From NCBI GenBank assembly GCA_033763455.1, contig JANRKO010000047.1:32001-96000 (forward strand): a DNA stretch of 64,000 nucleotides. The letters are read 5' to 3'. Shown here piece after piece: positions 56 through 56,500 of the stretch (the stretch's first letter is position 1; every line of letters begins with the position of its first letter). The translations under genes and the position numbers were made by a program. The stretch comes from Polyangiaceae bacterium (GTDB lineage Bacteria; Myxococcota_A; Polyangia; Polyangiales; Polyangiaceae). The notes beneath the pieces are model-generated. The model did no database searches and was not told the origin of the DNA. It worked only from the letters and a program-made list of their open reading frames with translations.

Positions 56-653
56 GGGTGTGCTCCTCCGGCTCGGGCCGGGGTGGAAGGTGGACGGGAA
101 GCCCGCCAACAAAACGCGGCATTTCGTGGGTGTTTTCGCTCCGTGCAGAAAATCCCGCGCAAGAAAGCAATCTCTGCCCAACAGAGAGTAAGCGGGAATC
201 ATGCTGTTTTCGTGCGCCAAGCCCTAAGCTGCCTACGCTTGTGTTCGTTGGGTCGGATGGATGATTGCCGGCGTTGGCGGCGTCAGCTCCGATCAACGTC
301 GCGAACGAGGGGCGCAGACCACTCGCTAGAAGGCCCCGTGCTGCTCCTGAGCGCCTCTGTGGCTTCGTTTCACGAGGTGCACCCAAGATGCCCAGGCCTG
401 CCAGGGGGGCAAATGCCGGGTCTGAGATTCCGGGTTTCGGTGCCCACGTGTGTGGCGCTGGTATATCCAATGGCCCCCAGACCGTGTGCTGACTCTCTCT
501 GGCTAACCAGTGCTGAAGGCCGTCGTGTTCGGACCGTGTGTCGTGTGCTGGCCCCCCTAGTACCCCCCGTGCGTGAGCACACGACACGCTGGGAGCGTGT
601 GTCGGTGCACACACACGTGTGCTGGCACACTCAACACACGGCACACGCCTCAT
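48..653 (-). CDS. Doubtful hypothetical ORF (201 aa) spanning the repeat array
   Basis: ATG overlaps the helicase stop (ATGA) and the stop overlaps the next start, but no recognisable domain and the N-terminus is translated repeats. Confidence 0.3.
   Translation of the reverse strand: MRRVPCVECASTRVCAPTHAPSVSCAHARGVLGGPAHDTRSEHDGLQHWLARESQHTVWGPLDIPAPHTWAPKPGISDPAFAPLAGLGILGAPRETKPQRRSGAARGLLASGLRPSFATLIGADAANAGNHPSDPTNTSVGSLGLGARKQHDSRLLSVGQRLLSCAGFSARSENTHEMPRFVGGLPVHLPPRPEPEEHTHA
447..647. repeat. Iteron-like array of CGTGTG/CACACG hexamers in both orientations; candidate replication origin
   Basis: Ten copies counted (447, 483, 535, 542, 578, 596, 612, 616, 635, 642); 12-bp inverted repeat 538-549/576-587; palindrome CACACGTGTG 612-621; directly downstream of the helicase. 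Confidence 0.65.
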
Positions 654-2407
654 GATTGCACCTCAGCTTTTGCCCACTGCCTGGCGCTCCTTTGGCGACC
701 GTCGCTCAGGTCAACGGCTCGCCCTGTTTCCAGAAGCTCAGCCATGGTGTTTAGGATCCGGTGGGCTCCCCACTTGTGCCCCCGCTTCTCCAGAGCCACT
801 TCGAGCGCTCCCCGGCTGAACGTGTTCGGCTGCTCAGGCAGAAGGCTTTCCACCAAGTCGCAGTCCGCCCTGAACCCAACCTGAACCCGGGCCTGTTTGG
901 CTTCCGCCTTCACTTCGGGCGACGCATGCTCACGGAGACCCGAAGCCGCTCGGAGCTCCTCGGCTTCCTCGGGCGTTGCAGCCCTAAGGACACCCGAGGT
1001 GCGGAGCCAACCGCCACCCGGGAGTTGTTCGTCTTGCATGCGGACCAGCCACAAGGGGTCAGCCTCGGGCGCCAGGTTGTTCTTCGAGTTTTCGAGCAAC
1101 ACGCCCTGAAGCTCAGCCGTCCGAACCTTGCTCAGTGTGAAGGCCGCCCTGAAACCGTTGCGTAACCCCGTTACACCTCGAACATCGGCCCCGCCAGCCC
1201 TGCCACTCGTCTTTGAGCTGTGGTGCGTCACCATGACGCCGGGCTCACCCGTGACACGAATAGCAATCGATTCGACGGCCTGAACAAAGGCGGTTGCAAG
1301 CCCGTTGTCTGATTCAGCGTTGCCTGAAGCGAACCTAGCAAGCGGATCGATTGCAACGAACGCCCATTCGAACCCACCCTTTTCGGCTTCATCGTTCAGC
1401 CGCTGAACTATCGCCTCCAAGAATTCGGTGCGCCGGGGATTGTGCGCTTGATCCACTGACAAGAAAGAAACCTCGTGCCCCGTCAATAGGAATAACAAGA
1501 TCTTCTCTTGGACCTGAAGCCTCTCCTCTGCACCCAAGCCGAGCGCGTTGCAGATCCGATAGAGCCGATCCTGACATTCTTCGGCGTCATCCTCACCCAT
1601 GAGGAGCGCAATGCGTCCGCAGTTAACCTCCGGTTGAAAGGCATCAAACAGCTTGCGCCCGAGGCCCAGGCAGACAGCCATCAAAAGAGCAATGAACGAC
1701 TTGCCCACGCCGCCATCGGCTGCAAGTACGAACACTTTCCCGCGGCGGAGTAGCGGCACGGGCTTGCCTGAGCGGACGTCGTTAAACAACCAACGGCGCT
1801 TGGGCGGTTCGGTAGCTAGATCTAAACTGCTCAGCCAAATTGCTGGCAATTCCATTGGCTTCTGTCGTTCGAGAAGGAGCAAGAGAGCGGCGGCTTTGGG
1901 CCATTCCTTTTGCTCTATGAGTTCCAGAATCTCAGCGATCAGGGTCGCCGTTTCGGCTGATTCCTCTTCCGTGCTCGCCTCGCCAGACTCCGGAGCATCG
2001 TCGGAATCATGCGCTGAACCATTCGTTCCCCTGCCGTTGGTGTGCGGCCTCTCGGCTCTTGGTGGCGCCTGCCTCGGCTGCTTCTCGCCGGCACCAAATG
2101 CACTATTGAGCGTGGCCCTAATCTCCCCATCTCCAAGCCCGCATTGCTTGGCCGCATGGTGTAAAGCCGCGCGGGCCTCGGCTTCACCGAGCTGGCCACC
2201 TGATACAAGTTGCGCGACCGAAAAGGCCGACGTGTTCAGCTGATTATTTCGTTCGCCTTCGGCTGCCGAGGCTACCGCGGAGCATTCGCGCTCAAGTGCC
2301 GCCCTACCGTACGGCGTGCCTCCGTCGACGGCCTTGGCCCGCGGCGTTGAATCATTCGCCGGCTCCGGCCGTTTGCGGTTCTTGCCGATTGCTTCTTCCC
2401 AGCTCAC
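650..2407 (-). CDS. RepA/AAA_25-type replicative helicase with N-terminal PriCT-like helical domain
   Basis: Walker A ADGGVGKS, Walker B VAIDP, THHSSK and RGVTGL motifs, SKNN; N-terminal GERNNQLN...EIRATLNS; GTG start overlaps the Prim-Pol stop. Confidence 0.85.
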   Translation of the reverse strand: MSWEEAIGKNRKRPEPANDSTPRAKAVDGGTPYGRAALERECSAVASAAEGERNNQLNTSAFSVAQLVSGGQLGEAEARAALHHAAKQCGLGDGEIRATLNSAFGAGEKQPRQAPPRAERPHTNGRGTNGSAHDSDDAPESGEASTEEESAETATLIAEILELIEQKEWPKAAALLLLLERQKPMELPAIWLSSLDLATEPPKRRWLFNDVRSGKPVPLLRRGKVFVLAADGGVGKSFIALLMAVCLGLGRKLFDAFQPEVNCGRIALLMGEDDAEECQDRLYRICNALGLGAEERLQVQEKILLFLLTGHEVSFLSVDQAHNPRRTEFLEAIVQRLNDEAEKGGFEWAFVAIDPLARFASGNAESDNGLATAFVQAVESIAIRVTGEPGVMVTHHSSKTSGRAGGADVRGVTGLRNGFRAAFTLSKVRTAELQGVLLENSKNNLAPEADPLWLVRMQDEQLPGGGWLRTSGVLRAATPEEAEELRAASGLREHASPEVKAEAKQARVQVGFRADCDLVESLLPEQPNTFSRGALEVALEKRGHKWGAHRILNTMAELLETGRAVDLSDGRQRSARQWAKAEVQS

Positions 2408-3042
2408 GGAAGCACCGCCGGTTCCTGGCAGTTGACCCACCGGTACGTTGCGCCGCTGGCATGCCTGCTCGGACCCACAACGATTTGACCGCCACGGCTC
2501 CGAACGTCGATGCCCGGTGCTATCCGTACCGCATTGCCGAAGTTGGCTGAATCTGAAACTCGAAATAACAAGTGAAAGCCTTTGGCCGTCTTGGCCGTGA
2601 GAGTTTGCGGGAGTTTCCCGTGCTCAGCTTCGAGCGGAGCTAAGAGTTCAAGCGCGCCATCCACATCGATCGCGATCACATCGAACCCACCAGGCTGCGG
2701 CCCCATGCGGAGACCAACGTTCAAGCGCCAGTCTTTCTCCAAGCCAGCAAGCAACGCCGGAACGTCGAGCGCTGCAGACTGCCATCCCTGCGCAACGGGA
2801 TGTTTGCCGGCTGCCCCACAACCAGGCCGGCCACAGGTGCACGAACCATCGGCGGCAATGCCGTGTAGCAAGATCGGATGTAGCCCAAGCTTGGCGTAAA
2901 TGCGGATGGCGTCGAGCTTGTCTGTTTGGGCGATCCATTGAAGCCGATCCCACCCCTGCAACTGCAACGGGGAAGCCGAATCCATCAGCCGCTGAACCTC
3001 AGCCTCTGGAACAATCGCATAGGGATCGGGCTTGGTGCTCAT
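2404..3042 (-). CDS. Bifunctional DNA primase/polymerase (Prim-Pol) domain protein
   Basis: CTCGRPGC...GKHP, NVGLRMG, IDVD, KTAKGFHLLF, GIDVRSRGGQIVVGPSRH motifs; ATG at 3042 overlaps the upstream stop. Confidence 0.9.
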   Translation of the reverse strand: MSTKPDPYAIVPEAEVQRLMDSASPLQLQGWDRLQWIAQTDKLDAIRIYAKLGLHPILLHGIAADGSCTCGRPGCGAAGKHPVAQGWQSAALDVPALLAGLEKDWRLNVGLRMGPQPGGFDVIAIDVDGALELLAPLEAEHGKLPQTLTAKTAKGFHLLFRVSDSANFGNAVRIAPGIDVRSRGGQIVVGPSRHASGATYRWVNCQEPAVLP

Positions 3043-3356
3043 GCTTCGCCCCTGCACTGCCGACACACGACGCCTTGGCCCTTGGTCCACCACACGCGAT
3101 CGCCGACATCAATGGCCCGGGCGCAATCGCGACAAAAGCTGTTGAACCGCGAATCAATCCACCGCCCAGGTGATGCCGGTTGGCTCGCCCGCGCAGCTGG
3201 AGCGAGTGCTTGGCACTGACCGGGCTCGTGGAGCTGCAAGCCATGTTCAGCGATCATTTTCGCTAGGATGACGCCACAGGTTCGCGCCTCTTCGGGAGGG
3301 GTGCCAGAGTGCGCGGCACGACTGACTAGCGCCAGGGCGCGTGCCGCGATGCTCAC
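3039..3356 (-). CDS. DUF2786-like helix plus C-terminal Zn-ribbon protein (105 aa)
   Basis: ALALVSRAAHSGTPPEEAR...MIAEHGL resembles DUF2786; CRDC...CRQC; GTGA-coupled start. Confidence 0.6.
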   Translation of the reverse strand: MSIAARALALVSRAAHSGTPPEEARTCGVILAKMIAEHGLQLHEPGQCQALAPAARASQPASPGRWIDSRFNSFCRDCARAIDVGDRVWWTKGQGVVCRQCRGEA

Positions 3357-7350: not shown

Positions 7351-8313
7351 CTAAGGCGGCAAATCTCGCGCACAACGGATCCCAATGTAATCAATGTGAT
7401 TATCCGGGCTATGGTTGCTGCGATAATCTGTGGTGATGCGGCCAGAATCCGAGCCAAAATATCCGCCGCGAATGGAGCGAAGCGTGCTCTCCTTTGTTTC
7501 CGCGCAGTTCACGCACGTAGGTTGATAGGCCGCGTACCAATCGAAGTTCCACTCAAACACGCTGCCGCCAAGATCGGACTGACCAAACTTCCCGTCCCCT
7601 GCCGGAAGGGAACCAACATTGGCGGTATGGATCTGCTTACAGCTCTCCGGATCCGTCGCAGCGACGGTAAAATGGCAGCTAAAGACCGCCCTTAGCGGAG
7701 GGCCAGCAGGCGGGTCTTCACCCCAGGCGTACGACCGCTGCTCGGCGCCACCCGCAGCAGCGTAGTTCCACTCGGCTTCGGTGGGCAGCCTTCCACCATC
7801 CCATAAGCAAAACGCGAAAGCTTCGCTCGAAGCAATGCAATTCATGGGGAGGTTTTCGCCCGCGCCTGGCTCGTCCGTCCAGTGCTGAAAAGCAGCGTCG
7901 CACTTGGCTACTTTGCGCAAGGTTGCGGCATCTTTAGGCAAGGAGGCACTTCGGCTTGCCGTCCACCCCGTACCTGGAATGCGCGGGTGCGCCCCTTCCC
8001 CAACCATTGGGTGCCCGGCGCTCCGCCAGGAATCATAAGCTTCCACGAATTTCCGATAGCGCCCCACGGTTACCTCGAACTTATCGAGCGTAAAATCCGC
8101 AACTTCGGCCGGGAAAGCCGGATCATTGCTGCGATTGAAGGCTCCACCCGTAACCTTCGGGCTCGCGCAGCAGCTTTCATTGCCAAGAGCCCCGCACGTC
8201 TTAGGTAACGTTTGGCAGCTGAGGGGCTCCGCCACCAGGTTCTCCGCTGGCACAGCTTCGGAGCCGCACGCCAACACAAGCCCACACCCAGCACACAGTG
8301 CCAAGACACGCAT
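7351..8313 (-). CDS. Formylglycine-generating enzyme (FGE-sulfatase/SUMF1) domain lipoprotein
   Basis: LDKFEVT, RLPTEAEWNYAA, DLGGSVFEW, RGG, IGIRCAR; lipobox VLAC; start estimated. Confidence 0.9.
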   Translation of the reverse strand: MRVLALCAGCGLVLACGSEAVPAENLVAEPLSCQTLPKTCGALGNESCCASPKVTGGAFNRSNDPAFPAEVADFTLDKFEVTVGRYRKFVEAYDSWRSAGHPMVGEGAHPRIPGTGWTASRSASLPKDAATLRKVAKCDAAFQHWTDEPGAGENLPMNCIASSEAFAFCLWDGGRLPTEAEWNYAAAGGAEQRSYAWGEDPPAGPPLRAVFSCHFTVAATDPESCKQIHTANVGSLPAGDGKFGQSDLGGSVFEWNFDWYAAYQPTCVNCAETKESTLRSIRGGYFGSDSGRITTDYRSNHSPDNHIDYIGIRCARDLPP

Positions 8314-8599
8314 AGCGCTGGCACCAAGCGCCGCGATGCGGCTACGGCCACATATTAACGTGCCGCTAATATGGGCGTAACGGCTAAGGCTTCGCGGTTC
8401 ATCGCTCCGAGGGATCACATTAGGCACTATAACCTCACGCGAGAAGGTTGTCCGCCCAGGTTGCAACGACACACCAGCGCGCACCCGAACGCAGCAATTC
8501 TCCGCGCCTACCCCTCGTGCAGCAGAACCTGGCTACAGCCGCGAATCACATCGCCCCTTTGCCGACGTGGCGGACTCAGAGGGTAGCACCCGTATTCAG

Positions 8600-8680
8600 G
8601 TGCCCCCTCTCGCTTCAGCCGCCCAAGGCGGCCTCAGCGGTCTCCCCCCTGCCAGTCGCTAACGCTCTGGCGGGGGAGAC
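8600..8680. repeat. REP-like palindromic intergenic repeat, copy 1
   Basis: GTGCCCCCTCTCGC...TCTCCCCCCTGCCAGTCGCTAACGCTCTGGCGGGGGAGAC hairpin; similar to 13731-13819. Confidence 0.7.
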
Positions 8681-8701
8681 TGCTCATTGCCCTAGGTACA
8701 G

Positions 8702-9343
8702 TTACTCGGCGTCACCGCAGGTGATCGTAACGTCGTGAGAGTGGCCATCATTGCTGCTGGTGAGCGTCACCGTTCCCGTGGTCTTCAAAGTGGTGAAGTC
8801 CGCGGGCGTCACCATGAGCGTGTGGGTGTGCTCAGGTTCGCCCCCCAACTCAAGCGTGTAAGTTTTCGCTGTACCAGCGATCACGTCAGCAAGAGGCACT
8901 GTTATGGGGTGCTCATGACCTGTCACCGTCATCGCCGTGGGCTCTGCGCTGCACTTGCCGCCATCACCGCTCGACCCACCACCCGTGCCGCTGTTGGTCC
9001 CGCCGGTTTCGTCGTCTGCACCGCCGGTGTTGTTGTTATTCGCGCCACCGGTGTTGCTGGTGCCACCGGTAGCTTTGCCGCCGGTATTCGCGTTGGATGC
9101 ACCGCCGGAGTTGCTCGCCCCGCCCGTGGCTTTGCCGCCCGTGCCGCTCGCCGCTCCACCCGTGGCTTTGCCGCCGGTGCCGCTCGCCGCTCCACCGGTG
9201 CCAGGCTTGCCCCCAGTTGTGTTTCCTGCGCCGCCGCCGCCGCCGCCGGGGCTTGATTCGTCGTCGCTACAAGCGACGCCTACGAGGCCTGCTGCTGCGG
9301 ACACAAAGCCAACTTTGAGTAAGTCTTGTCGGGAAATTTTCAT
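8702..9343 (-). CDS. Tat-like lipoprotein with Gly-rich repeats and a His-rich C-terminal domain
   Basis: MKISRQDLLK...VGVAC; GGAASGTGGKAT repeats; HEH, HTH and HSH motifs; RBS GGAG. Confidence 0.8.
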   Translation of the reverse strand: MKISRQDLLKVGFVSAAAGLVGVACSDDESSPGGGGGGAGNTTGGKPGTGGAASGTGGKATGGAASGTGGKATGGASNSGGASNANTGGKATGGTSNTGGANNNNTGGADDETGGTNSGTGGGSSGDGGKCSAEPTAMTVTGHEHPITVPLADVIAGTAKTYTLELGGEPEHTHTLMVTPADFTTLKTTGTVTLTSSNDGHSHDVTITCGDAE

Positions 9344-15216: not shown

Positions 15217-15289
15217 GGGCCGATAGCTCAGTCGGTAGAGCAGTGGATTTTTAATCCATTGGTCGAGGGTTCGAATCCCTCTCGGCCCA
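15217..15289 (+). tRNA. tRNA-Lys(TTT), CCA not encoded
   Basis: GGGCCGA...TCGGCCC-A acceptor; D-arm GCTCAGTCGGTAGAGC; anticodon arm GTGGA-TTTTTAA-TCCAT; GGTTCGAATCC. Confidence 0.95.
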
Positions 15290-21452: not shown

Positions 21453-21862
21453 GCAAGCCCTGGTGGCGCTCGCTAGTGGGGCGAGCCTCTCTCCTTGGGG
21501 GCGTGCTCGCACTCGTCACCTTGATTGGGCCTCGTATGCCGCATGAGCAAGAGCTCGCTTTCAACCTCGGCAAGGCAGAAGCACAGCAGCTCGAAGTCAG
21601 TTGGACGCCCGAGTCGGAAGTGGAAGCGCAGGGCGGATTTTCCCTCAACCTTGCGGCTAAACCGTCGCGAATCGTCCGGCATACGGCCGAGCTCCCCAAT
21701 GGGAGCTATCGCTTCGATATCGTCGTCACCCCATCGCCGATCGCGCCCGCCGTAGAGGCAAAACAGGCGAGCAATTCGTCACCAACTCCTTCCGCTTCGA
21801 CAACCACCTATGTCCGTCGCGTAACGCTGGAGGGTGGCCCCACCACCATCCACCTACCGTAA
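21449..21862 (+). CDS. Hypothetical membrane-anchored protein
   Basis: ATGA-coupled to the cytochrome c gene; N-terminal TM. Confidence 0.7.
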   Translation: MSKPWWRSLVGRASLLGGVLALVTLIGPRMPHEQELAFNLGKAEAQQLEVSWTPESEVEAQGGFSLNLAAKPSRIVRHTAELPNGSYRFDIVVTPSPIAPAVEAKQASNSSPTPSASTTTYVRRVTLEGGPTTIHLP

Positions 21863-21872
21863 GGCCCACCAA

Positions 21873-22802
21873 GTGACAGACCCAACGCGTCCCAACCCCG
21901 GTCCCACGCCCACCGCCAACCATCTGGTCGCTTTGAGCGAACCCATGCGGCAGCTTGCTTCCCAGGTTGACCGAGCAGCATCTGCAGCGGGAGCCGTCCT
22001 CATCCTGGGGGAACGCGGTGCGGGTCGTACCTTCGTCGCCCGCGCGCTCCACCACCGCAGCCCCCACGGCAAGGCGCCGTTTGTGGCACTGGATCTGTCC
22101 GAAGTTTCCCTCCAACACCAGCGCGACGTTCTCTTCGGGCGCGCGAGCCTGGTCGACTTAGATGGAACACTTTGTCTCAAAGAAATCGAGCATTTAGCGC
22201 CAGAACTTCAAGTGGAACTTTCTCAGAGAATTGGACGCACGGGCAGCCGAATCGTCGCAACCTCCGCCCGGCCGCTTGAGCAGTGGGCGGGTGCAGGTGC
22301 CTTTAGCGTGCAGCTCTTAGGGGTATTCAGTGACCGGCTTCGTGTTCCTGCCCTGAGGGAGCGGCAAGAGGATCTGGCGGAGTTGGTGCGAACCCTCACG
22401 CGGGAGGCGTGCGCCGCTGCACGACGGAACACCCTGACTCCCTCCGAAGCCTTCATCCTTGCGCTCTCCCGATACGATTTCCCCGGCAACATTACCCAGC
22501 TTCGAGCTGTATTGGATCGGGCCATCCAGCGAGTGGGCGTCGAAGAGGAGCTCGGAACTAGTGCCCTGAGCTCGATTAGCGAATTCCGAGAGCCGGGTGC
22601 ATTTTCGGCATCGCTTTCCTATCGCGACACGCGGACGCACTTCGAAAACGGGTTCGAAAAGGCTTACGTATCCTGGTTGCTCGAACGCCACCAAGACAAC
22701 ATCAGTGCGGCCGCCCGCGAGGCGCGCATGGACCGCAAGCACCTCTACGACCTCGCGCGCAAACACGGACTACGCCGGCCCCGAGGCCTAGAAGATGATT
22801 AA
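21873..22802 (+). CDS. Degenerate sigma-54 activator-like AAA+/Fis-HTH regulator
   Basis: VLILGERGAGRT, VPALRER, FPGNITQL, NISAAAREARMDRKHLY; no GAFTGA. Confidence 0.85.
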   Translation: MTDPTRPNPGPTPTANHLVALSEPMRQLASQVDRAASAAGAVLILGERGAGRTFVARALHHRSPHGKAPFVALDLSEVSLQHQRDVLFGRASLVDLDGTLCLKEIEHLAPELQVELSQRIGRTGSRIVATSARPLEQWAGAGAFSVQLLGVFSDRLRVPALRERQEDLAELVRTLTREACAAARRNTLTPSEAFILALSRYDFPGNITQLRAVLDRAIQRVGVEEELGTSALSSISEFREPGAFSASLSYRDTRTHFENGFEKAYVSWLLERHQDNISAAAREARMDRKHLYDLARKHGLRRPRGLEDD

Positions 22803-23010
22803 GTGGCTGATTTTGAGGGATAGGACCGGTATGTGTTCCAATCCCCCTTGAAGCCAGCGACGCGGTGCGGCTATCTCTTGGCCATACGAGGCGCCGTGTG
22901 GCATCTTATCCTACATCAGATTACATTAGCTCTTAGCAACGTGGCCTCGCCGGTGTCGGCGTGAGGCCCTTGGGGGAAACCCTTGGTCTGTTATTGGAGT
23001 GACAATACGC

Positions 23011-23187
23011 ATGAAGTTTAACCTCTACCACCTGCTAGCTCTTGTTTGCCTCGGAGCGGCAGCGCTCGCTGGTTCGATCGGCATGCAGCTGGCCGTGTTG
23101 GGCGTGACGCTCGGCATTTTCTTTGGAACACTTTCCCTCCGTAGCCCTGCTGCTTCGGAAGCACCCAGCGCCAATACGGGTACCTAA
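23011..23187 (+). CDS. Small membrane protein (58 aa)
   Basis: RBS GGAG; two hydrophobic segments. Confidence 0.6.
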   Translation: MKFNLYHLLALVCLGAAALAGSIGMQLAVLGVTLGIFFGTLSLRSPAASEAPSANTGT

Positions 23188-23255
23188 CGGACCAGTTCGA
23201 TAGCACCCCACCGCGCTCGTCCCGCGAGCCCCGGGCGAGCGCGATCCCGCCGCCG

Positions 23256-24320
23256 ATGCTGAAGAGCATCCGCGATTTGCTGTTGCCCGAGGTCGAGGCT
23301 ATTCGGCTTATTCTCCGCGGCGGTTCGGTGGTCGATTGGCATCGGCTCCAGTTTACGAGTTCAACCGAAATTGAACGTTTCCTGGCCACACAGGAGCTTT
23401 CGCTCGAAAATCCCAGCGACCGCGCGTACCTGGACCACGTGCGGGAGGCGGCCATCGAGTACCTCCGCCGCAACTTCTCCTTCTCAATCCCCAAGCCCAT
23501 CGAGCGTGCGCCGGTCGATCAGCTAATGCTCATCGCCTCCGGACAGGCGGAATCGAATCATCGCCAGCTGTGCGCCTGCACGGTATTGAAGACGCTGCAC
23601 ATCATCCACCACATGTCCGGCCGCGAGCTTTTGTTTCGTTTGCCGGTGAGCGACCACGACCTCTTCCACTTGGTTGAAGAGAAGGTTTATCGCGTCGTTG
23701 GTACGATGCTAAGTGCTGGCTTTCCAATCACGGAGTTCATTGGCGGCCGCAAGAATCTCGACTCCACGTATACCAAGCTCTTATCCAAACGCGAGGCCAC
23801 GGCCTCGGCCCTTTACGATAAGCTCCGCTTTCGGATCGTGACGCGCACCCGGGAAGATCTCTTGCCCGTCTTGAACTACCTAACCGAACGGGTGGTTCCA
23901 TTTAACTATGTGGTGCCCCTGCAGAGCAGCAACACCATCCTCGATTTTGCCGAGCTCTGCCGTCAGCACCCGCATTTGGGGCAGATGGCACCACATTTTC
24001 AGGGCGATACGGACGATATGTTGAGCACTGGGGACAACCGCTTCAGCGCCCCAAGCTATCGGGTCATCCACTTCGTGGCGGACATTCCGGTCCGAGTGCC
24101 GGAACACGTGATGGAGCAGGCTCCCGACGGCTGCGAGGCCCTCGGGCCCATTGTCTTCATGCTTTGCGAATTTCAGCTTCTTGATGCCGACAGCGATGCC
24201 GCCAACGAAACGGGCGACGCGAGCCACGAATCCTACAAGCAACGGCAGAGAGCAGCTGTTTTCCGCCGGCTTCGTATGGGCGTACGGCCCGAGAAATCGC
24301 CCGGGGACGCTGACTCGTAG
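23256..24320 (+). CDS. TIGR04552-like protein with RelA/SpoT synthetase-like motifs
   Basis: LILRGGSVVDW; GRKNLDSTYTKL, YDKLRFRIV, SYRVIH, EFQL, GDASHESYK. Confidence 0.8.
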   Translation: MLKSIRDLLLPEVEAIRLILRGGSVVDWHRLQFTSSTEIERFLATQELSLENPSDRAYLDHVREAAIEYLRRNFSFSIPKPIERAPVDQLMLIASGQAESNHRQLCACTVLKTLHIIHHMSGRELLFRLPVSDHDLFHLVEEKVYRVVGTMLSAGFPITEFIGGRKNLDSTYTKLLSKREATASALYDKLRFRIVTRTREDLLPVLNYLTERVVPFNYVVPLQSSNTILDFAELCRQHPHLGQMAPHFQGDTDDMLSTGDNRFSAPSYRVIHFVADIPVRVPEHVMEQAPDGCEALGPIVFMLCEFQLLDADSDAANETGDASHESYKQRQRAAVFRRLRMGVRPEKSPGDADS

Positions 24321-24419
24321 GGCATCCCGCCCAAGGGGGCGCTCAGAGCCGAAATACCGACGTGCTTTCAGCAGAATAGCGCTCCCTCGGGTCGCTTAAA
24401 TGCGCTACGAATCGAGGTC

Positions 24420-24929
24420 ATGCGGCTTGCAAGCTCCCGGGTGCCCGAAATCGTCCACGAAATGGTCGCCGCTCTTGTGGCCGGAGGGGACATCGAAACC
24501 GAGAGTCCCAAAGAGGTGGAACGCGACCTGGAGTCCGTCCTCAACCAATACATTGAGGACGAGCGGGAAATTACCGACCGCGCACGCGACATGATCGCAG
24601 CAAAAGGCCTCCCGCAGAGCGATATCGGCAAGATGCGACGCTCGCTCGCAGATCAACGTAAGCTCAAGCTCGACGACGAAGCGATCGACTACCTGCTCGA
24701 TCAGTTACTCGAAATGCTCATGCATTCGAATAACGTCGAAGAAATCTTCGCGGAAGACTTTCAGTTGCGAAAAAAAATGCGCGAGCCGCTCCGTAGGCAG
24801 GCCGACCTCGATGGGGAGCTTCAAGAAGCCGTGAGGAACCAGCTGAAGCACGTCAAAGAAGGCACCAGCACTTGGGAAATCGAGTACCGCCGAGTGATGG
24901 AGGATATCAAGCGTCGTAAGGGCCTTTAG
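24420..24929 (+). CDS. DUF507 family protein
   Basis: MRL...EIFAEDFQLR...EGTSTWEIEY...KRRKGL pattern. Confidence 0.75.
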   Translation: MRLASSRVPEIVHEMVAALVAGGDIETESPKEVERDLESVLNQYIEDEREITDRARDMIAAKGLPQSDIGKMRRSLADQRKLKLDDEAIDYLLDQLLEMLMHSNNVEEIFAEDFQLRKKMREPLRRQADLDGELQEAVRNQLKHVKEGTSTWEIEYRRVMEDIKRRKGL

Positions 24930-24934
24930 GCGCA

Positions 24935-25807
24935 GTGCTCAGCATGACGGGTTTTGGGGTGGGTGTATCACCCTACGGAAGCGGCCGAATCCTGGCCGAA
25001 ATTCGTGCACTCAATCATCGCTTCACGGATGTGCGCGTGCGTACGCCCGATACTCTCAGCGGGGAAACGTTGTTCGTTGAACAGCTAGTGCGAACTCACC
25101 TGTCTCGCGGGCGCTTAGACGTGGGCATTCGCTTCGAAGGAGTGGAGCCCGCCTCGGTGGAGTTGGATCCAGGTCGAGTGCGGCGGCTGTATCAGCTGCT
25201 TTCCGCGCTCAAAGAAGAGTTAGCTCCCGAATCAGCGCTCACACTGGATGCGGTGCTAAGAGCGCCAGAATTAGTCACCGTGCACACCGGTCAAGACATT
25301 GACCAAATCCGCGCGGTGTTAACTAGCGCCGTAGAAGCGGCAATCTCGAACCTAAACGAAATGCGGACTCGCGAAGGGCAAACGTTGGCCGCTGAGCTCG
25401 CGGCTCGCCTGGAAAACGCTCGAAAGCTGCTGGGCGAGGTACGGAGCCGAACGGCCGAGGGTAAAAGCGCCTACCGGGAGCGGGTGCAGGCCCGCCTCCA
25501 GCACTTATTGCGGGAAGTGAAGGCCCCCATCGACGAAGGGCGGCTAGAGGTAGAGCTTGCGCTCTTGGCTGAGCGCTCCGACATCACCGAAGAAATGGTG
25601 CGGCTCGAAAGCCATTTTGAGCAATTTGGACGCGTGCTCAAGGAGCCCGGTGCGGTGGGGCGAAAGTTGGAATTTTTGCTCCAAGAAATGGCCCGGGAAG
25701 CCAATACCATCGGAGCCAAAAGCCAGAGTGCAAGTGTGAATCACCTAGCGCTTGAGATCAAAGTCGAGCTCGAGCGCATGCGGGAACAGGTACAAAATGT
25801 CGAATAA
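24935..25807 (+). CDS. yicC: YicC/YloC family endoribonuclease
   Basis: SMTGFG, NHRF, DITEEMVRL, GRKLEFLLQEMAREANT, REQVQNVE. Confidence 0.95.
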   Translation: MLSMTGFGVGVSPYGSGRILAEIRALNHRFTDVRVRTPDTLSGETLFVEQLVRTHLSRGRLDVGIRFEGVEPASVELDPGRVRRLYQLLSALKEELAPESALTLDAVLRAPELVTVHTGQDIDQIRAVLTSAVEAAISNLNEMRTREGQTLAAELAARLENARKLLGEVRSRTAEGKSAYRERVQARLQHLLREVKAPIDEGRLEVELALLAERSDITEEMVRLESHFEQFGRVLKEPGAVGRKLEFLLQEMAREANTIGAKSQSASVNHLALEIKVELERMREQVQNVE

Positions 25808-26426
25808 CGGTCCGCTCTTGTTGATCGTCTCTTCCCCTTCCGGGGCAGGCAAAACAACGCTGACGGCGAGGTTGCTGAAAAGCATCGAAAACGTCCGCTT
25901 CAGCATTTCGCATACCACCCGGAAGCCTCGCGGCAACGAAGAAAATGGGCGCGAATACCACTTCGTAACGCGCCCTGAATTCGAACACCTCATAGCCCAA
26001 GAAGAATTCGTCGAATGGGCCGAGGTGCATGGCAACCTCTACGGAACCAGCAAGCGTGAACTAGAAAGCGCTTCGAGCGCTCGGGGGATCCTGTTTGATA
26101 TCGACCACCAAGGCGCGCGCCAGATCAAGAGTTCTCGCCCAGATGCAGTAGGTGTCTTCATCTTGCCCCCCAGCATGGATGTGCTTTTGAAGCGTCTGCG
26201 GGGGCGTGCAAGCGAGGACGAAGAGACGGTGCAGCGACGCTTCAATGTCGCACGCACCGAAATTGCTCATTATGGCCTCTTTGATTACGTGCTCGTAAAC
26301 GACGACCTCGATGAGGCCACCGACAAATTGCTCGGCATTTTTCGAGCCGAAGAGTGCAAAAGGGCCCGGGCAGCCAGATTCGCCGAACAGCTCCTGGCGA
26401 TGGGTCGCGAATTTGGCGGCGCATAA
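25797..26426 (+). CDS. gmk: Guanylate kinase
   Basis: SPSGAGKTT, SHTTRKPR, EYHFV, HGNLYGT, FILPPS. Confidence 0.97.
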   Translation: MSNNGPLLLIVSSPSGAGKTTLTARLLKSIENVRFSISHTTRKPRGNEENGREYHFVTRPEFEHLIAQEEFVEWAEVHGNLYGTSKRELESASSARGILFDIDHQGARQIKSSRPDAVGVFILPPSMDVLLKRLRGRASEDEETVQRRFNVARTEIAHYGLFDYVLVNDDLDEATDKLLGIFRAEECKRARAARFAEQLLAMGREFGGA

Positions 26427-26491
26427 AGCGTGGTGATGCCAAGATTCTTGCTTGAACCTCAAGCTCCCCTGCGACAGAGTTGGGCACCCCG

Positions 26492-27415
26492 ATGACTCCT
26501 TCCCATAGCAAATCTGTTCTCATCATTGGTTCGATGGCGTTCGACGACCTCGAACTCCCGTCCGGCTCCTTCACGGATGTAGTGGGAGGCTCCGCAACCT
26601 ATTGCGCGTACGCCGCCAGCCTGTTCGCCAAGGCGAGCGTAGTCGCTGTCGTTGGGGCAGATTTCCCGAAAGCTACGCTTGATTCGCTCGGGCGGCGCGG
26701 CGTGAACACCGAGGGCATCGAACAAGTTCCCGGAAAAACCTTTCGATGGAAGGGCCGCTACGCGAGCAACCTAGCAAGCCGCACGACGCTCGACACGCAG
26801 CTGAATGTCTTCGCTGATTTTCGCCCGAAGCTCCCGAACAATGTCCGCAAGTGCACGCACCTTTTGCTCGGCAATATCCACCCCGCGCTTCAACTCGAGG
26901 TTCTGGATCAGGTAGAGAATCCCGAATTCGTCGCGGCCGATACGATGAATTTCTGGATCGAAGGCGAACGCGCAACCCTAGAGCGCGTGCTCAAACGCAT
27001 TGGCTGCTTGGTCGTAAACGACGAAGAGATCCGCCAGCTCTCGGGTGAACACAACATCAAGAAGGCTGCTGCACGCGTCCAACAGATGGGCCCCAAGCGC
27101 GTCATCGTAAAACGCGGCGAATATGGCGCTCTGCTCTTCGACGAACACGGCGTCTTTTTTGCCCCCGCCTATCCCCTAGAGGCTGAGGTAGATCCAACGG
27201 GTGCGGGTGATACCTTCGCCGGCGCATTCATGGGCTTTCTTGCCAGCGAGGGCGAATACGACCGCTCCTCGCTACGCCGTGCACTGATGATGGCCGCCAC
27301 GGTTGCGTCGTTTTGCGTCGAAAGTGTTGGTACCGAGCGCCTCGCTTCGCTCGGCCGTGACGATGTAGCGGCGCGGCTAGATTCGCTCCGAAGCCTCGTA
27401 CACTTCGGAGCTTAG
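26492..27415 (+). CDS. PfkB family carbohydrate/nucleoside kinase
   Basis: GGSATY, DPTGAGDTFAG. Confidence 0.93.
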   Translation: MTPSHSKSVLIIGSMAFDDLELPSGSFTDVVGGSATYCAYAASLFAKASVVAVVGADFPKATLDSLGRRGVNTEGIEQVPGKTFRWKGRYASNLASRTTLDTQLNVFADFRPKLPNNVRKCTHLLLGNIHPALQLEVLDQVENPEFVAADTMNFWIEGERATLERVLKRIGCLVVNDEEIRQLSGEHNIKKAAARVQQMGPKRVIVKRGEYGALLFDEHGVFFAPAYPLEAEVDPTGAGDTFAGAFMGFLASEGEYDRSSLRRALMMAATVASFCVESVGTERLASLGRDDVAARLDSLRSLVHFGA

Positions 27416-27428
27416 GCAGCTTTGGCGT

Positions 27429-27719
27429 TCAGGCGGCCCGACCAATGGTCGCGTCGCCGCGCACTAGCGTTTCCGCCGAGGACGGCAGCACAACCTCAGC
27501 CACCGAGGGACCGTAGAATCGAGAACGCACGGTTGCGACCAGCGCCAAAAGCTCACGCTGGGTAGCGACCTTGCTGTCCATGAGCAGGCGCATGTAGCCG
27601 TCGGCATAGCCCTGGGCGTGTGCCAAACGGGCGTGTGGACCACCGGCTTCTTTAAGTTCCAGGACGTCAGTGAGTAAGGTCTCGAGAACGCGCAACTGGT
27701 CAGTGTTATTTGAGCTCAT
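27429..27719 (-). CDS. Hypothetical protein (96 aa)
   Basis: RBS GGAGG; AQGYADGYM motif. Confidence 0.65.
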   Translation of the reverse strand: MSSNNTDQLRVLETLLTDVLELKEAGGPHARLAHAQGYADGYMRLLMDSKVATQRELLALVATVRSRFYGPSVAEVVLPSSAETLVRGDATIGRAA

Positions 27720-28010
27720 AGTGGCCTCCGGCAATGGGTCGCCCAGACCCGCCCTTGGTAACGGGCGCCCGCGATTAGGGCCAAGTTCGCGCAAAAAACA
27801 GGTAGCAGTACCGCGCCGGAAGTAGGTGCGTGGGAAGACCCAAGTCAGATTCGCCCAGTTCATCATGGGCGGTCAGGTCGCGGGCCGTGTGCCGAGCAGG
27901 CCGCTACCGCATGGGCCAATTGACTCAGAGCCAAACCGGCCTAAGGTTAAGTCATCCACAGTCCTGCAGGCAGACCCCAAAAAGGCCGCCATGTTTGAGG
28001 GCCAAAAAGC

Positions 28011-44306: not shown

Positions 44307-46436
44307 ATGCCCTCCCTCCCCAGCCTTCCTATTCTGTTCGTCGATGATGAAGCTCCTGTGCGCCGTGCCTTTGAACGTACGATGCGCCAACGCGGCTTCA
44401 AGGTAACTACGGCGGCGAGTGGCCCCGAGGCGCTGCGGGCGGTGCAGCTCCAGCAGTACCCGGTAGTGGTTACCGATCTCCGGATGCCGGGGCTCGACGG
44501 CATCGCGCTCATTGAACGCATCGTATCTATCTATCCGGATACTTCGTTCGTAGTGGTCACGGGCATGCCTGAGGTGGATCTGCGACGTGATCACGGCACG
44601 CACCACGGAATCACCGCCATAGTGCCCAAGCCGTGGAACGATGATGAACTCGCGAGCATTGTGGAGCGCGCCTACGAGCTCCAACGGCAGCGAGCCGAAT
44701 CTGCAGCACTCGATGCGGACGTATACCGCGTATTGCTCGTGGAGAACGCCGCCGAACAGGATTCCTCCGTAGCCGATTGCCTGCGCAGCGCCTTCGACAA
44801 ACGCCTCAAGCTCACCTTTGCGCAGAGCGTGCGAGAAGCCATTGCCAAACTCCACGATTCAGAGGTGGACATCATTCTTACAGATCTTGGCCTTCCTGAC
44901 GCCGGCGGGCTCGACTGCGTCCGCGCCCTGCACCCAGCCTCCCAGGAAGCGGCCATCATTGTGCTCAGCGACATTCACGACGAAGCGCTTTCTTTGGAAG
45001 CTATCCGCGTAGGTGCTCAGGAATACATCGCCAAGCCAGATCTCCACGCTCGCCACCTTCGTCAGCTCATTCGCTTCGCCGTCGAGCGCAAGAAGGCCGA
45101 GCAGCGCCTGGCCCACCGGGCCAACTATGATCAACTCACCGGCCTGGCCAACCGCTCCACGCTGCGCCGAAAGCTCGTTCAATCGCTCGCCCGAGCCACA
45201 CGAAGCAACGAGAAGCTGGCGGTAATGTTTCTCGATCTCGATCACTTCAAGGCCATCAACGATGCATACGGGCATGAAGGTGGAGATCGCCTGCTGCGCG
45301 AAGTCAGCGACCGTTTACTGGCAGCCGTGCGTGAATACGACACCGTTGCCAGGCTTTCTGGCGATGAATTTGCCATCTTGGTGGAGGGCCTGGAAAGCGC
45401 GGAGATCCCCGAAGCCCTAGCGCGCCGCATCGTGGCCTCACTCTCTCGCCCTATAACCCTAGATGGCGCAGAGCTTTGCGTCACATCCAGCATCGGAATT
45501 GCAAGTTACCCAGGTGCCGCCGAAACAGCGGACGAATTGCTCAAGGCCGCCGACTTTGCCATGTACCTTGCCAAGGAGCGAGGGCGAAACACCTACGTTC
45601 GGATGCAGGAGCCTCACGACGCTCAGGCAAAAAAAGCCCTAAGCCTTGCCGCACAGCTGCGCGTTGCCAAACAAGCCGATCAATTCTGCCTATTTTATCA
45701 GCCACAGGTAGCTCTGCCTTCGCTTGAAGTCGTGGGCCTGGAAGCGCTCTTGCGCTGGCGGCGTGATGATGGCGTGTTGGTTTCCCCTGCTGAATTTGTG
45801 CCGGTCCTCGAAGACAGCGGCCTCATTCTTGAAGCGGGTGCGTGGGTACTGCATGAAGCTTGCCGCAAGCTCGGCGAATTGCGCGAAGAAGGCCACCTAC
45901 ACCTTCGCATGGCCGTGAACCTATCGGCAAAACAATTCGAAGCTCAGGGCCTGGTGGATACGGTAAAAAGTGCCATGAAGGCTCACCGCGTTCCGCCGGG
46001 TTGTTTGGAGCTCGAAATCACCGAATCTCTCCTGATGCGAGACACCGAACGCACCAATTCAACGTTGGCGGAGCTCAAACGCCTCGGCGTTCGCATCGCG
46101 ATTGATGACTTTGGCACGGGCTATTCGTCACTCGCCTATCTGGATCGCTTCGACGTAGACGTGCTCAAGATCGATCAGTCTTTCATTCGAGCGATTTCTC
46201 GCGACAATCAACGAGAAGCTGTGGCTGGAGCCATCGTAGGCCTCGGCCACCAGTTGGGGTTGGAGGTAGTCGCAGAAGGCGTCGAATCCGACTCCCAAAT
46301 GCACTACATGATCGCGCAAGGCTGCAACATGGCTCAGGGCTACCTGTTCGGGCGCCCTGAAGAGCACTGGTCACCGCCGGCGCGGTCCTCGGTTCTCTTG
46401 GTCTCGCCGGGTGCCTCCCTGTCCTTGGCCGTTTGA
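44307..46436 (+). CDS. REC-REC-GGDEF-EAL diguanylate cyclase/phosphodiesterase
   Basis: Two receiver domains; SGDEF with I-site REYD; EAL, EITES, DDFGTGYSS. Confidence 0.95.
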   Translation: MPSLPSLPILFVDDEAPVRRAFERTMRQRGFKVTTAASGPEALRAVQLQQYPVVVTDLRMPGLDGIALIERIVSIYPDTSFVVVTGMPEVDLRRDHGTHHGITAIVPKPWNDDELASIVERAYELQRQRAESAALDADVYRVLLVENAAEQDSSVADCLRSAFDKRLKLTFAQSVREAIAKLHDSEVDIILTDLGLPDAGGLDCVRALHPASQEAAIIVLSDIHDEALSLEAIRVGAQEYIAKPDLHARHLRQLIRFAVERKKAEQRLAHRANYDQLTGLANRSTLRRKLVQSLARATRSNEKLAVMFLDLDHFKAINDAYGHEGGDRLLREVSDRLLAAVREYDTVARLSGDEFAILVEGLESAEIPEALARRIVASLSRPITLDGAELCVTSSIGIASYPGAAETADELLKAADFAMYLAKERGRNTYVRMQEPHDAQAKKALSLAAQLRVAKQADQFCLFYQPQVALPSLEVVGLEALLRWRRDDGVLVSPAEFVPVLEDSGLILEAGAWVLHEACRKLGELREEGHLHLRMAVNLSAKQFEAQGLVDTVKSAMKAHRVPPGCLELEITESLLMRDTERTNSTLAELKRLGVRIAIDDFGTGYSSLAYLDRFDVDVLKIDQSFIRAISRDNQREAVAGAIVGLGHQLGLEVVAEGVESDSQMHYMIAQGCNMAQGYLFGRPEEHWSPPARSSVLLVSPGASLSLAV

Positions 46437-53506: not shown

Positions 53507-56500
53507 TTAAGTGGCGGGGCGATCGATCAACTCGTCATCTTCGATGTCCATGGCGTCGTCAGCCTCCGCCTCCCGCACAGGAGGCGGAGGAACCGGTGCA
53601 TTCGAGGCGGGCCGACGCGGCGGCGGTGGAGGGCCTGAGGAGGGCCCACGTGGCGGCGGAGGAGGCGCTTTGGAAGAACGACCATTCGGTGGTCGAGGCG
53701 GAGGAGCAAGCTTTTTGGCTGGAGGCGGAGGCTCGGGCGCCACCTCAGGCTCAATACCCATGTCGATGTCGACGTCAATTTCTTCTGAGCTTTGTGCGCG
53801 AGCTGCTGCCCTTACTGGGAAGGTCGGAGGCTCCCCTAGCTCGATTTCAGCGGAGGATTGGCGCACATCAGTCGCAAGAACCGAGCGCACGCTTTCCTCT
53901 AAGCTGCCCTCCACGTCCAACGTGCTTGCGGCGTTGGACGCCAGATCTATCTCCACGCGGCTGTCGAGGTTGGGCGCGGAAAAGGGTTCCTCGATCCGCC
54001 GAAAGACAGCTGAGAGTTCCTCGGCCATCGAATCTCCATCGATCTCCGGGGAGAAAGGCGGAGCCTCGTCGCCCAAAGTGTCTCCGTCCTCAGAGCTCGA
54101 CTCCGCCGCGCTCGAAGCCAACAATGCCGAAGCCACCGGTTCTTCGCTGGGCACTTCGTCCTCGTCCCCAACCATCTCCCCATCTGCATCCTCCGAAGCC
54201 TCAGGCAAAACAAGGTTGCCAGCGGAGGTCTGCACGTCAGCATCGGCATCCGAAACAACCCCGGCTGCGACTGTATCCGTCTCAGAATCGCCTGCGCTGG
54301 TATCGGTGTCAGCCTCGCCCGCGGGCTCCAACTCGGCCGCTATCGGCGACGCCGCCACCTCTTCGGAAGCGGCATCAACCGTTCGCGCGGCCTGCAAAGA
54401 CGAAGCCTCCGAGTCAGGAGGTTCCGCAGCCTCGGCTTCTGCTATTTGGGGCCCCTTTTCCTCGTGTTTTTCGGGCGCCGCTACAGATTGCTCAACAGAA
54501 TTATCGCGGCCCGCGTCAGCGTCCGGCGTTTCTTCGGCATCTTCCACCGCCGGAGCGTTCAACATGCCCCGTTTAGCGTTGTCCAAGCCACGCGTGGCTT
54601 CGGGATCATTGGGCACCAGCCGCAAAACGCGCCGCCAAGCATCGGCCGCTTCACGTGGATCGCCAAGCTCGCCACCCCACAGCTTGGCAACCTTTCGCGA
54701 AAGCTCCGCACGCAGCTCCTTGTCCTTGCAGCGCAAGATGAGATCTTCGTAAAGCTTCACCAGGCCCGCGTAATTCTTCGTTTCGGAATACAGGCTAATA
54801 AGGCTATCTGTGACCTCTTGATCGGAAGGAGCGAGTTCGTGCAACCGTTTCAGATCAGCGCTCGCGCCCTCAATGTCATCCAGCTCCTCGCGTCGCAATT
54901 TCGCACGTTTTGCCAAAAGCAAGCGCACCCATGGCCCGTCGAACACCTCCGAGAGGGCTCGCTCGAAAACCGCGTCGGCCAACTTCATATCGTGAAGCTC
55001 CCGCGCCAACTCAAGCACACCGCGGATCCCATCTTCATCCACGTGAGCAATGAGAGCATCACCCATCCAAGCCAAAGCTTGACTGGTATCCTTGTAGTCG
55101 AAGGCCGCAAGCCTTCCGGCGCGCAAAAGGAAGCGCGAACGCGTTTTACCGCCATCTCTCGCCGATTGACCAGCCGCGCTAAGCACATCAGCCAGAAGCT
55201 TCACCACTACAGGCTCTTTGCCTGCAAGATCACACTCCCGAGCACTGTTAACCAGCAACTCTAACGCCTCAGCATCTAAAGAAGAACCCAGCGCGATTTC
55301 AAAAAAGCCACGAGCCCTATCCAATTGACCCGCGCGCGCAGCAACTTCGGCCGCACGAGCTAGCGCCCGCAAGCGATCCTTAGGATCTTTGCAGCGCATC
55401 ACCTGGTGTTCGTAGAGATCCACCGTTTGCTCGGGGGAATCGGCACACGCAGAAAGCCGCTCCAAAAGCGGCTCCACTTCAGCTGGAGGCATGCTCGAAA
55501 GTGCTTGTTCCCCGTGCTCCAAAGCTTGCGCTGAATCCATACCGGCCCGGCGCAACACCAGGGCTTGTCGCACCAACTCTTCCGCGCGCGCTGGCCCAGT
55601 AAGCTGCTTCACCAAGAAGGCCTGAGCGAGAGAGAGAGCTCCCATGTGACGGCTCTTCTGGGCGAGCTCTTCGAGCTTAGAGGCAATTTCAGGGGTGGCG
55701 CCTCCGCTTCGCACGAGCTCTTCGGCCACGCTTACAAGTTGTTCGGTGTCTTCCAAGGCCAGAAAACGCTCAAAAACGGAGCGCAGCGCGGTATCTCGCC
55801 GTTCACTATGCCCAAGCGGCCGATACCAACTGAGCAGCGCGTTTGCCACTTCCGCTCGCCTCCCCAGCTTATCGCCAAGGGCCACGAACGCGTCTCTGCA
55901 AGCTTCATCCCCGGAATCGGCAACGGCTTTTAATGCCGCGAGAGCTTCGTCCCCACGCCCCAAATGTTGGTCCAGAATCTCAGCACGGCGGCGCGTCAGC
56001 TGGCTCACCTCTTCGTCGTCACCCTCGACTTCGATGAGCTCCACCATGTAGCCCGCAAGCGCGTCCCAATCCCCGAGGCGCTCAGAAAGGCTAGCCAGGC
56101 GCTGAACCGCACTAAAATCCTCAGGATCCTGGCTTCTCACCAAAGCTAGCAAACGGACCGCATCTTTCGGCTCGTCCAGCTTCTCTTCATAAATGTCCGC
56201 CAAGCGATTCGCCACTTCGAGCTTGCTCTCGGGCTCTTCCTGCAACTCGAGTAAACGTTCGAGAGCCTTGGCTGCGCCTGCAAAATTCTCTTCGGCCTCC
56301 TTGAGGTCAGCCACCCTGCGCAGGGCTTCCTGGTTCCTGGGATCGAGCGTATTCAAGATGAATTCGTAGCGCTCCATGGCGCCAACCGGATCTGCTAGCT
56401 GGGTCGCAAGAAACGCACCTTCCCGCAGAGTAATGGCTGTTTTTCGCGCCACATCTGGTTCGGCCGCGGCCTGGCGATGTAAGTAGTGGCAAGCCTCAGC

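Follow-up and report, generated by a model that had tools for sequence, protein, structure and literature searches.

RelA/SpoT homologue (RSH) synthetases hold the phosphates of ATP with a first motif, Syn1, of the form R-x-K-x3-S-x3-K, and the roles of their residues in contacts with ATP phosphates, with Mg2+ and in base stacking come from structural work on RelSeq, RelQ and RelP. The synthetase domain stands alone, with no hydrolase domain, in the small alarmone synthetases (SAS) RelP (SAS2) and RelQ (SAS1) of Firmicutes (structures 6fgk, 6ewz, 6fgx, 6ex0, 5dec and 5ded) and is part of the long RSH enzymes Rel, RelA and SpoT (7oiw, 8acu, 1vj7, 24io, 5iqr and 7qpr). The toxic SAS enzymes (toxSAS; CapRel, FaRel, FaRel2 and PhRel) and Tas1 belong to the same superfamily, and passages of the toxSAS literature report that the RSH fold can use acceptors other than GDP or GTP. 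Here, a gene of a Polyangiaceae bacterium is compared with these systems. The window (the whole stretch of DNA analysed, 64,000 nucleotides; positions 32,001 to 96,000 of contig JANRKO010000047.1, assembly GCA_033763455.1) is a chromosomal stretch of ~60 % GC whose nearest relatives are Polyangiaceae genomes and which carries dnaE, panD, tatC, pyrF and similar genes. The gene encodes a member of the catalogued family TIGR04552, which forms a stand-alone and strongly diverged branch of the RSH synthetase superfamily. The gene and the two parts of its product are as follows.

23256..24320, + strand: TIGR04552-family RSH-synthetase-like gene (354 aa, ATG start)
23256..23645, + strand: all-helical N-terminal domain, residues ~1-130, specific to the family (AlphaFold2 model)
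23646..24278, + strand: RSH synthetase-like alpha/beta core, residues ~131-341 (hhalign to RelA and SpoT; neighbours in the ESM Atlas)

The 354-aa protein matched the NCBIfam model TIGR04552 with an E value of 6.3e-100 (334.9 bits, cut-off 125) and the sister model TIGR04562 with an E value of 2.9e-96 (322.8 bits, cut-off 140), in both cases over residues 12-339. Both models bear the sole name "TIGR04552 family protein". A family alignment and profile were built from 72 diverse sequences that are 29-57 % identical to the protein, and all 72 matched the same two models. Among 6,282 candidates from a 90 %-clustered database, 2,278 clusters belonged to the family at E<=0.001, and an exhaustive 50 %-clustered library contained 745 representatives. 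The protein is a typical member of a family that is common in Myxococcota; further members were found in a Bdellovibrio genome and in GenBank record MW495066.1. In contrast to the long RSH enzymes, the 354-aa protein contained no HD, TGS or ACT domain in a Pfam search. A search for fused or longer relatives returned a single one, of 696 aa, and six slightly longer members and two of ordinary length with partial matches had no additional Pfam domain. These results support a protein that stands alone and is related to the RSH synthetase domain. MixRel, an SAS named from other myxobacteria, was considered as the identity of the family and rejected, as Melittangium MixRel has canonical EVQVR and IEH-DYK motifs.

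An initial annotation of this DNA, made from the letters alone, had placed five motifs in a fixed order in the open reading frame (ORF) 23256-24320 and had compared them with those of RSH synthetases. The ORF and all five motifs are present, at residues 164-174, 186-195, 267-272, 305-308 (EFQL) and 320-328. The parallels to RSH enzymes held beyond chance in the Pfam, PDB profile and Foldseek comparisons, although the proposed alignment of GRKNLDSTYTK was one residue off register. Pfam RelA_SpoT (PF04607) matched the single protein over residues 166-213 only (19.4 bits, E 0.0014), but this family was matched at E<=0.01 by 30 of the 72 members, with a best E value of 4.2e-6; the remaining Pfam matches were to two unrelated families, in one member each. 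A phmmer search with the single 354-aa protein against PDB sequences gave no match at E<=10, while the 72-sequence profile, searched against 177,635 PDB sequences, gave five distinct matches at E<=10, all to GTP pyrophosphokinases: RelP 6fgk at an E value of 0.0036, Rel 7oiw at 0.01, and RelA in three sequences at 0.6-0.8. These alignments spanned all five synthetase motifs. Comparison of the family profile by hhalign gave E values of 0.0023 against residues 229-361 of Escherichia coli RelA, 0.0012 against residues 222-345 of E. coli SpoT and 3.4e-4 against RelA synthetase regions aligned from 33 sequences; the matches to RelA and SpoT were co-linear over 124-133 columns of the synthetase domains. 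The distant member in MW495066.1 (26 % identity) covered positions 3-111 of the 113 in the RelA_SpoT profile (24 bits) and bears near-canonical DLVGVR, YRSLH and EIQ motifs. Judged from these motifs, it bridges the TIGR04552 family to ordinary RSH enzymes. The individual tests of RSH kinship were each marginal, yet all were concordant.

The AlphaFold2 model of the 354-aa protein had a pLDDT of 93.4 and a pTM of 0.91. Structure prediction against the RelA synthetase domain, RelP and RelQ had been named in the initial annotation as a way to check the kinship, and the fold found was the Pol-beta-like RSH fold. Foldseek returned 34 PDB matches at E<=0.001, and among the matches listed (to rank 46) all were RSH enzymes, led by RelP (3e-5) and RelQ (5.6e-5) and followed by Rel, RelSeq, RelA and SpoT; the RelP and RelQ structures, with E values of 3e-5 to 1e-4, were the best structural matches. 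The TM score normalized by target was ~0.5 for the small synthetases. In the ESM Atlas, the structural neighbours outside the family's own clusters were long RSH enzymes aligned over residues 131-344. On the basis of the model, the C-terminal two-thirds of the protein (residues ~131-341) are established as an RSH Pol-beta-like nucleotidyltransferase fold.

The core carries counterparts of the five synthetase motifs together with a loop that belongs to the family. Residue conservation was counted in the 72-sequence alignment.

23745..23777, + strand: Syn1-like GRKNLDSTYTK, residues 164-174, aligned to RelP KsfeSivnK
23811..23840, + strand: Syn2-like LYDKLRFRIV, residues 186-195, with D188 and R193 aligned to the D and R of DxxGxR in RelP and Rel
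23892..23939, + strand: loop VVPFNYVVPLQSSNTI specific to the family, residues 213-228, opposite a gap in the hhalign alignments to RelA and SpoT
24054..24071, + strand: Syn3-like SYRVIH, residues 267-272, aligned to RelP GYRSLH
24168..24185, + strand: Syn4-like EFQLLD, residues 305-310, aligned to EIQIRT of Rel and RelA
24213..24239, + strand: Syn5-like GDASHESYK, residues 320-328, aligned to GvAAHWaYK

The residues expected on the donor side of an RSH active site were highly conserved. In the Syn1-like motif, K166 was found in 71 of the 72 sequences, S170 in 66 and K174 in 69, and in the Syn2-like motif D188 was found in 71 and R193 in 66. We take K166, S170, K174 and R193 to correspond to the residues by which RelP, RelQ and Rel hold the phosphates of ATP, with roles assigned from the structural literature, and D188 and E305 to be the two catalytic acidic positions of RSH synthetases. 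E305 was invariant (72/72) and Q307 was kept in 69 sequences. Position 268 of the Syn3-like motif was aromatic in all but one sequence (71/72; Tyr in 53, Phe in 18), and the Syn5-like motif retained G320 (70/72), H324 (68/72), Y327 (70/72) and K328 (66/72). The K..S..K, D..R, aromatic, E.Q and H..YK motifs are co-linear with those of RelP and RelQ, although identity to these proteins is only 12-17 %. Unlike RelP and RelQ, the protein has an extra N-terminal domain of ~130 residues and an insert of ~55 residues, without counterpart in RelA or SpoT, within which the PFNYVVP..S.N loop sits, and it differs from them at the arginine of RxK, the glycine of DxxGxR and in ExQIRT. The loop was conserved at P215 (71/72), N217 (66/72), P221 (63/72) and N226 (71/72). 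N317, immediately before the Syn5-like motif, was present in all 72 sequences, and K112, P215, N217, N226, P278, D310, N317 and R330 form a set of invariant residues that is the family's own, and many of them fall within this loop.

The reading that best fits these data, and that is probably though by no means securely correct, is that TIGR04552 proteins are a divergent stand-alone RSH branch and act as alarmone-type pyrophosphokinases, with GDP or GTP as the first-guess acceptor and an adenine nucleotide or another acceptor nearly as likely. An active pyrophosphokinase is expected because there is hardly any variation in the ATP-binding Lys/Ser/Lys residues or in the catalytic Asp and Glu. 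Judged from its residues, the active site is likely that of a functional transferase that depends on ATP and has an altered acceptor side. On the donor side, K166, S170 and K174 together with R193 would hold the phosphates of ATP-Mg2+, and D188 and E305 would be catalytic. The beta,gamma-pyrophosphate of ATP would then be passed to the 3'-OH of a purine nucleotide, in the first-guess case GDP or GTP, to yield (p)ppGpp; the aromatic platform at Tyr268 and the H..YK helix are also retained. Several observations weigh against this reading. The Pfam score of the single protein is below the RelA_SpoT gathering score of 27, the hhalign probabilities were modest (12.5-37.6 %) with templates made up of one sequence or showing little diversity (Neff 2.6), and the Foldseek TM score normalized by query was only ~0.3, owing to the extra domain and the insert. 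Within the motifs, the arginine of RSH RxK falls on position 164, which is Ser or Gly in the family, and R165, which is off register with respect to the RSH arginine, was kept in 38 of the 72 sequences. The glycine of DxxGxR is replaced by R191 (71/72), in contrast to the distant MW495066.1 member with its DLVGVR; position 272, the histidine of GYxSxH, is His in the 354-aa protein, yet this holds for no more than five of the 72 sequences, with Asn in 41; and a hydrophobic residue followed by D310 (71/72) stands in place of the Arg-Thr of ExQIRT. As read from the alignment, these motif changes and the invariant residues peculiar to the family speak for an acceptor, and perhaps a chemistry, other than that of (p)ppGpp synthesis. 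A full-text literature search for TIGR04552, TIGR04562 and MXAN_4858 returned no biochemical data for any member.

The strongest alternative, clearly less probable than the reading above but a serious one, keeps the active RSH-fold pyrophosphokinase and changes its substrate: the acceptor would be something other than a guanine nucleotide, giving a (pp)pApp-type product or modifying another 3'-OH such as that of the tRNA CCA end, in a housekeeping rather than a toxic role. The donor-side residues are kept while the acceptor side is remodelled (Asn at position 272 in most members, loss of Arg-Thr, the PFNYVVP..S.N loop, D310, N317 and K112), which is the reason why an adenine nucleotide or another acceptor was rated nearly as likely as GDP or GTP, and RSH folds of toxSAS enzymes take adenine nucleotides or tRNA in the passages of that literature. 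However, the protein shares the aromatic residue at position 268 (Tyr or Phe) and the H..YK helix with (p)ppGpp synthetases, and RelP and RelQ are its nearest relatives among solved structures, with no toxSAS among the Foldseek matches listed. The identity of an acceptor is not readable from sequence alone.

The N-terminal domain consists of six helices in the AlphaFold2 model, including residues 10-21, 36-45, 53-74, 80-94 and 101-128. Within it, K112 was invariant and C108, L111 and H119 were near-invariant. Helix 101-128 carries K112 and may on this account form part of the active site, and the domain is probably a regulatory or substrate-shaping module. Modelled alone (39 sequences, pLDDT 79.8), it gave a best Foldseek E value of 0.43 against the PDB and no match at E<=0.001. 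Its interpretation as a degenerate HD domain was rejected, as it lies outside the hhalign matches to RelA and SpoT. This large domain without a fold match, together with the lost RxK arginine, DxxGxR glycine and ExQIRT arginine and the mild mutant phenotype reported for Myxococcus xanthus in passages of a preprint (see below), would also suit a protein that has lost its transferase activity and serves as a catalytically silent, RSH-like nucleotide-binding sensor or scaffold. This is unlikely: the catalytic acidic residues and the Lys/Ser/Lys positions are kept in 66-72 of the 72 sequences at 29-57 % identity, as in a working site.

To place the gene in its genomic setting, the genes that follow it were identified from Pfam and NCBIfam matches.

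24420..24929, + strand: DUF507 protein, 169 aa (PF04368, E 1.6e-31)
24935..25807, + strand: YicC/YloC-family endoribonuclease, 290 aa (TIGR00255, E 3.2e-67; 33 % identity to E. coli YicC)
25797..26426, + strand: guanylate kinase, gmk (TIGR03263, E 2.2e-65; 44 % identity to E. coli Gmk)
26480..27415, + strand: PfkB-family kinase, 311 aa (PF00294, E 3.5e-31)

This agrees with the DUF507-yicC-gmk-pfkB order on the same strand that had been given in the initial annotation. The TIGR04552 gene lies 99 bp from DUF507, and DUF507, yicC and gmk are 5 bp apart or overlapping; the gmk ORF opens at a TTG at 25752, but its probable start, from the translation, is the ATG at 25797, which overlaps the end of yicC. 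DUF507 is described, in passages of the literature, as a widespread helical protein with a structure solved from Aquifex. The PfkB-family kinase was far below the cut-off of every NCBIfam equivalog, and its nearest solved structure was 3kd6 (E 1.1e-90), a 'carbohydrate kinase, PfkB family' without assigned substrate; from its place beside gmk, a nucleoside kinase role is conceivable. A scan for promoter and terminator consensus sequences over positions 22700-27900 found nothing above shuffled expectation, and Rfam gave a single match in the whole window, a tRNA at 15217-15289, with no riboswitch near the cluster.

Conservation of this order was assessed in related loci, which were found with a 15-sequence family alignment and comprise the best 80 of 595 confirmed relatives, all Polyangiales-type with 55-81 % identity. 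Among loci with room for the test, DUF507 followed on the same strand in 62 of 62, yicC in 53 of 56, gmk in 55 of 55 and pfkB in 46 of 55. The distance from the TIGR04552 gene to DUF507 was <=350 bp in 47 of 62 loci and >1 kb in 12, and all 12 of the latter belonged to a more distant group that includes Sorangium, Polyangium and Chondromyces. In a Sorangium locus (L075), an opposite-strand Crp-family gene (8239-9147, - strand) lies between the TIGR04552 gene and DUF507, and an epimerase gene parts DUF507 from yicC; in another locus (L080), an opposite-strand Ser/Thr kinase gene occupies the first of these positions. A similar gap of ~1.2-1.8 kb between the TIGR04552 gene and DUF507 was seen in the Polyangium and Chondromyces loci. 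The Crp-family gene of L075 encodes a cyclic-nucleotide-binding regulator and so adjoins a gene for a nucleotide-messenger-like enzyme. In the Polyangium jinanense SDU13 genome, the same TIGR04552 locus is present on scaffolds 71 and 19 (L070 and L071) with identical dnaE and cytochrome c flank coordinates, which may be either a recent duplication or assembly redundancy.

Gmk is a target of (p)ppGpp in some phyla, and in E. coli K-12 the row yicC...gmk-rpoZ-spoT places spoT near gmk, an arrangement that was rightly cited in the initial annotation and that resembles the position of the TIGR04552 gene. Its statement that neither spoT nor rpoZ is present here also agrees with tblastn searches (E<=0.01) with E. 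coli RpoZ, SpoT and RelA, which found no homologue either in the window or across the 80 related loci, where a short divergent rpoZ could escape detection. Pfam found no other RelA_SpoT and no HD_4 domain in 44 of the larger ORFs of the window. The entire region from dnaE to panD was syntenic across the related loci, and the TIGR04552-DUF507-yicC-gmk order may for this reason be mere inheritance. No gmk, yicC or DUF507 was found within ~23 kb of the distant relative in MW495066.1, the only distant context inspected. Conserved linkage to gmk, which the initial annotation had set as a test, was seen in all 55 testable close relatives but is interrupted by opposite-strand genes in Sorangium-like genomes and absent in one distant relative. 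The position of the gene before DUF507-yicC-gmk is lineage-level synteny. The functional link between the TIGR04552 gene and gmk is weak, which counts with the contrary points gathered above, and coupling to guanylate metabolism is possible, with support confined to one order. Of the earlier proposal of a stand-alone alarmone synthetase tied to guanylate metabolism, the stand-alone kinship with RSH synthetases stood, while alarmone production and the guanylate tie are putative.

The record MW495066.1 is named 'Microcystis phage MaAM05' (274 kb), and its positions 100000-148000 contain the member of TIGR04552/TIGR04562 (loci L083 and L084). The record bears murJ, fliM, pomA, glyS, secDF, smc, scpAB, fabI and acpS. 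A viral TIGR04552 homologue was rejected as an explanation, as the record is full of bacterial housekeeping genes and resembles a bacterial chromosome.

The TIGR04552 gene stands in a housekeeping context with stable chromosomal synteny, and it gave no PADLOC match and no plasmid match. A role as a toxSAS-type toxin or defence module, with DUF507 as its antitoxin, is on these grounds very improbable. The protein does have a small alarmone synthetase fold, and a small gene follows it closely in most loci (the 47 of 62 noted above). However, in contrast to toxSAS genes, it has no antitoxin-like obligate partner and no mobile or defence context: DUF507 is >1 kb away in 12 loci, with opposite-strand genes between the two in L075 and L080, it is missing near the distant relative and it also occurs in Aquifex, according to the passages cited above, while the synteny between dnaE and panD is that of a conserved core and the lone 'phage' record resembles a bacterial chromosome. 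Weakest of all, a chance or convergent resemblance of an unrelated fold to RSH enzymes would account for the marginal scores of single sequence-based tests (19.4 bits; E 0.0014-0.0036) but is scarcely credible, given that Pfam on 30 of 72 members, the PDB profile search, hhalign and the model with the Foldseek matches listed concur and are co-linear on five motifs.

Upstream of the TIGR04552 gene, one further feature recurs in the related loci.

22999..23187, + strand: small hydrophobic ORF just upstream of the TIGR04552 gene, of 62 aa with a GTG start or 58 aa with the ATG at 23011

In tblastn searches, this ORF was found on the same strand, 24-394 bp upstream, in 57 of the 73 loci that offered 700 bp or more of upstream sequence; it was not found by tblastn in the more distant Sorangium/Polyangium group and had no PADLOC match. 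It could encode a small membrane protein that is co-inherited with the TIGR04552 gene. A sigma-54 activator-like AAA+ protein (Sigma54_activ_2 and lid domain), without receiver or sensor domain, is encoded at 21834-22802 (+ strand), and many of the related loci have 3-4 kb of intervening sequence between the sigma-54 activator-like gene and the TIGR04552 gene. Elsewhere in the window, Prim-Pol and AAA_25 (RepA-like) genes adjoin each other at the left end (650-3093, - strand), a pairing that suggests an integrated mobile element; a c-di-GMP turnover protein, namely a response regulator that has both a GGDEF and an EAL domain, is encoded at 44307-46436 (+ strand); and a 1,813-aa TPR/ARM-repeat protein is encoded at 53507-58948 (- strand), with a YscJ/FliF-family lipoprotein gene nearby at 60644-61459 (+ strand).

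Members of the family have been mentioned in passing in earlier work. In the passages of a 2026 preprint that concern it, MXAN_4858 is an uncharacterised TIGR04552 gene beside the glt G1 gliding cluster of M. xanthus, and its transposon mutants resemble weak gliding-motility mutants in development (aggregation phenotype). One table row of a Bdellovibrio evolution study records a frameshift in a TIGR04552-family gene, which is there likewise termed uncharacterised. Supplementary file 5 of the RSH census of Atkinson et al. 2011 (PMC3153485) lists an unclassified entry 'SYNTH' once each for M. xanthus DK1622 (YP_633016.1) and Sorangium cellulosum So ce56 (YP_001614396.1), so that two of the three 'SYNTH' entries in the whole table are myxobacterial. 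In Dataset S2 of the census of Jimmy et al. 2020 (PMC7229694), five Myxococcales genomes out of 30, among them that of Chondromyces apiculatus DSM 436, have the likewise unclassified entry 'Rel[S]'. Neither a subfamily name nor a discussion accompanies these entries in the passages of PMC3153485 and PMC7229694 that were consulted. The C. apiculatus DSM 436 genome carries a TIGR04552 locus (L057). By rough gene-index arithmetic from relA as MXAN_3204, YP_633016.1 presumably corresponds to about MXAN_4858. The 'SYNTH' and 'Rel[S]' entries are probably TIGR04552 proteins at the edge of detection, and the patchy detection of 'Rel[S]' among close species fits a borderline-scoring protein. TIGR04552 is thus a catalogued family that was probably glimpsed in censuses and never described.

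Fruiting-body development in Myxococcus is triggered by (p)ppGpp, the signal of starvation in bacteria, and, to our knowledge, the long Rel/RelA enzyme is the only (p)ppGpp synthetase that has been studied there. A more ambitious and rather doubtful possibility is that TIGR04552 is an unnamed ancient RSH class of Myxococcota, with members reported from Bdellovibrio as well, in which the N-terminal domain gates a remodelled pocket that makes a messenger other than (p)ppGpp for the control of development and motility (as the MXAN_4858 phenotype would suit), and that in Polyangiales is wired to the GDP supply through yicC-gmk. The tie to guanylate kinase would be of interest but is at present no more than local synteny. 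If the TIGR04552 protein is an active pyrophosphokinase, as the preferred reading holds, it would represent a structurally distinct RSH branch, set apart by an acceptor loop and an N-terminal domain that are both new. The picture of nucleotide signalling in myxobacteria, and perhaps in Bdellovibrio, would then be altered by a second synthetase-like enzyme shared by the whole family.

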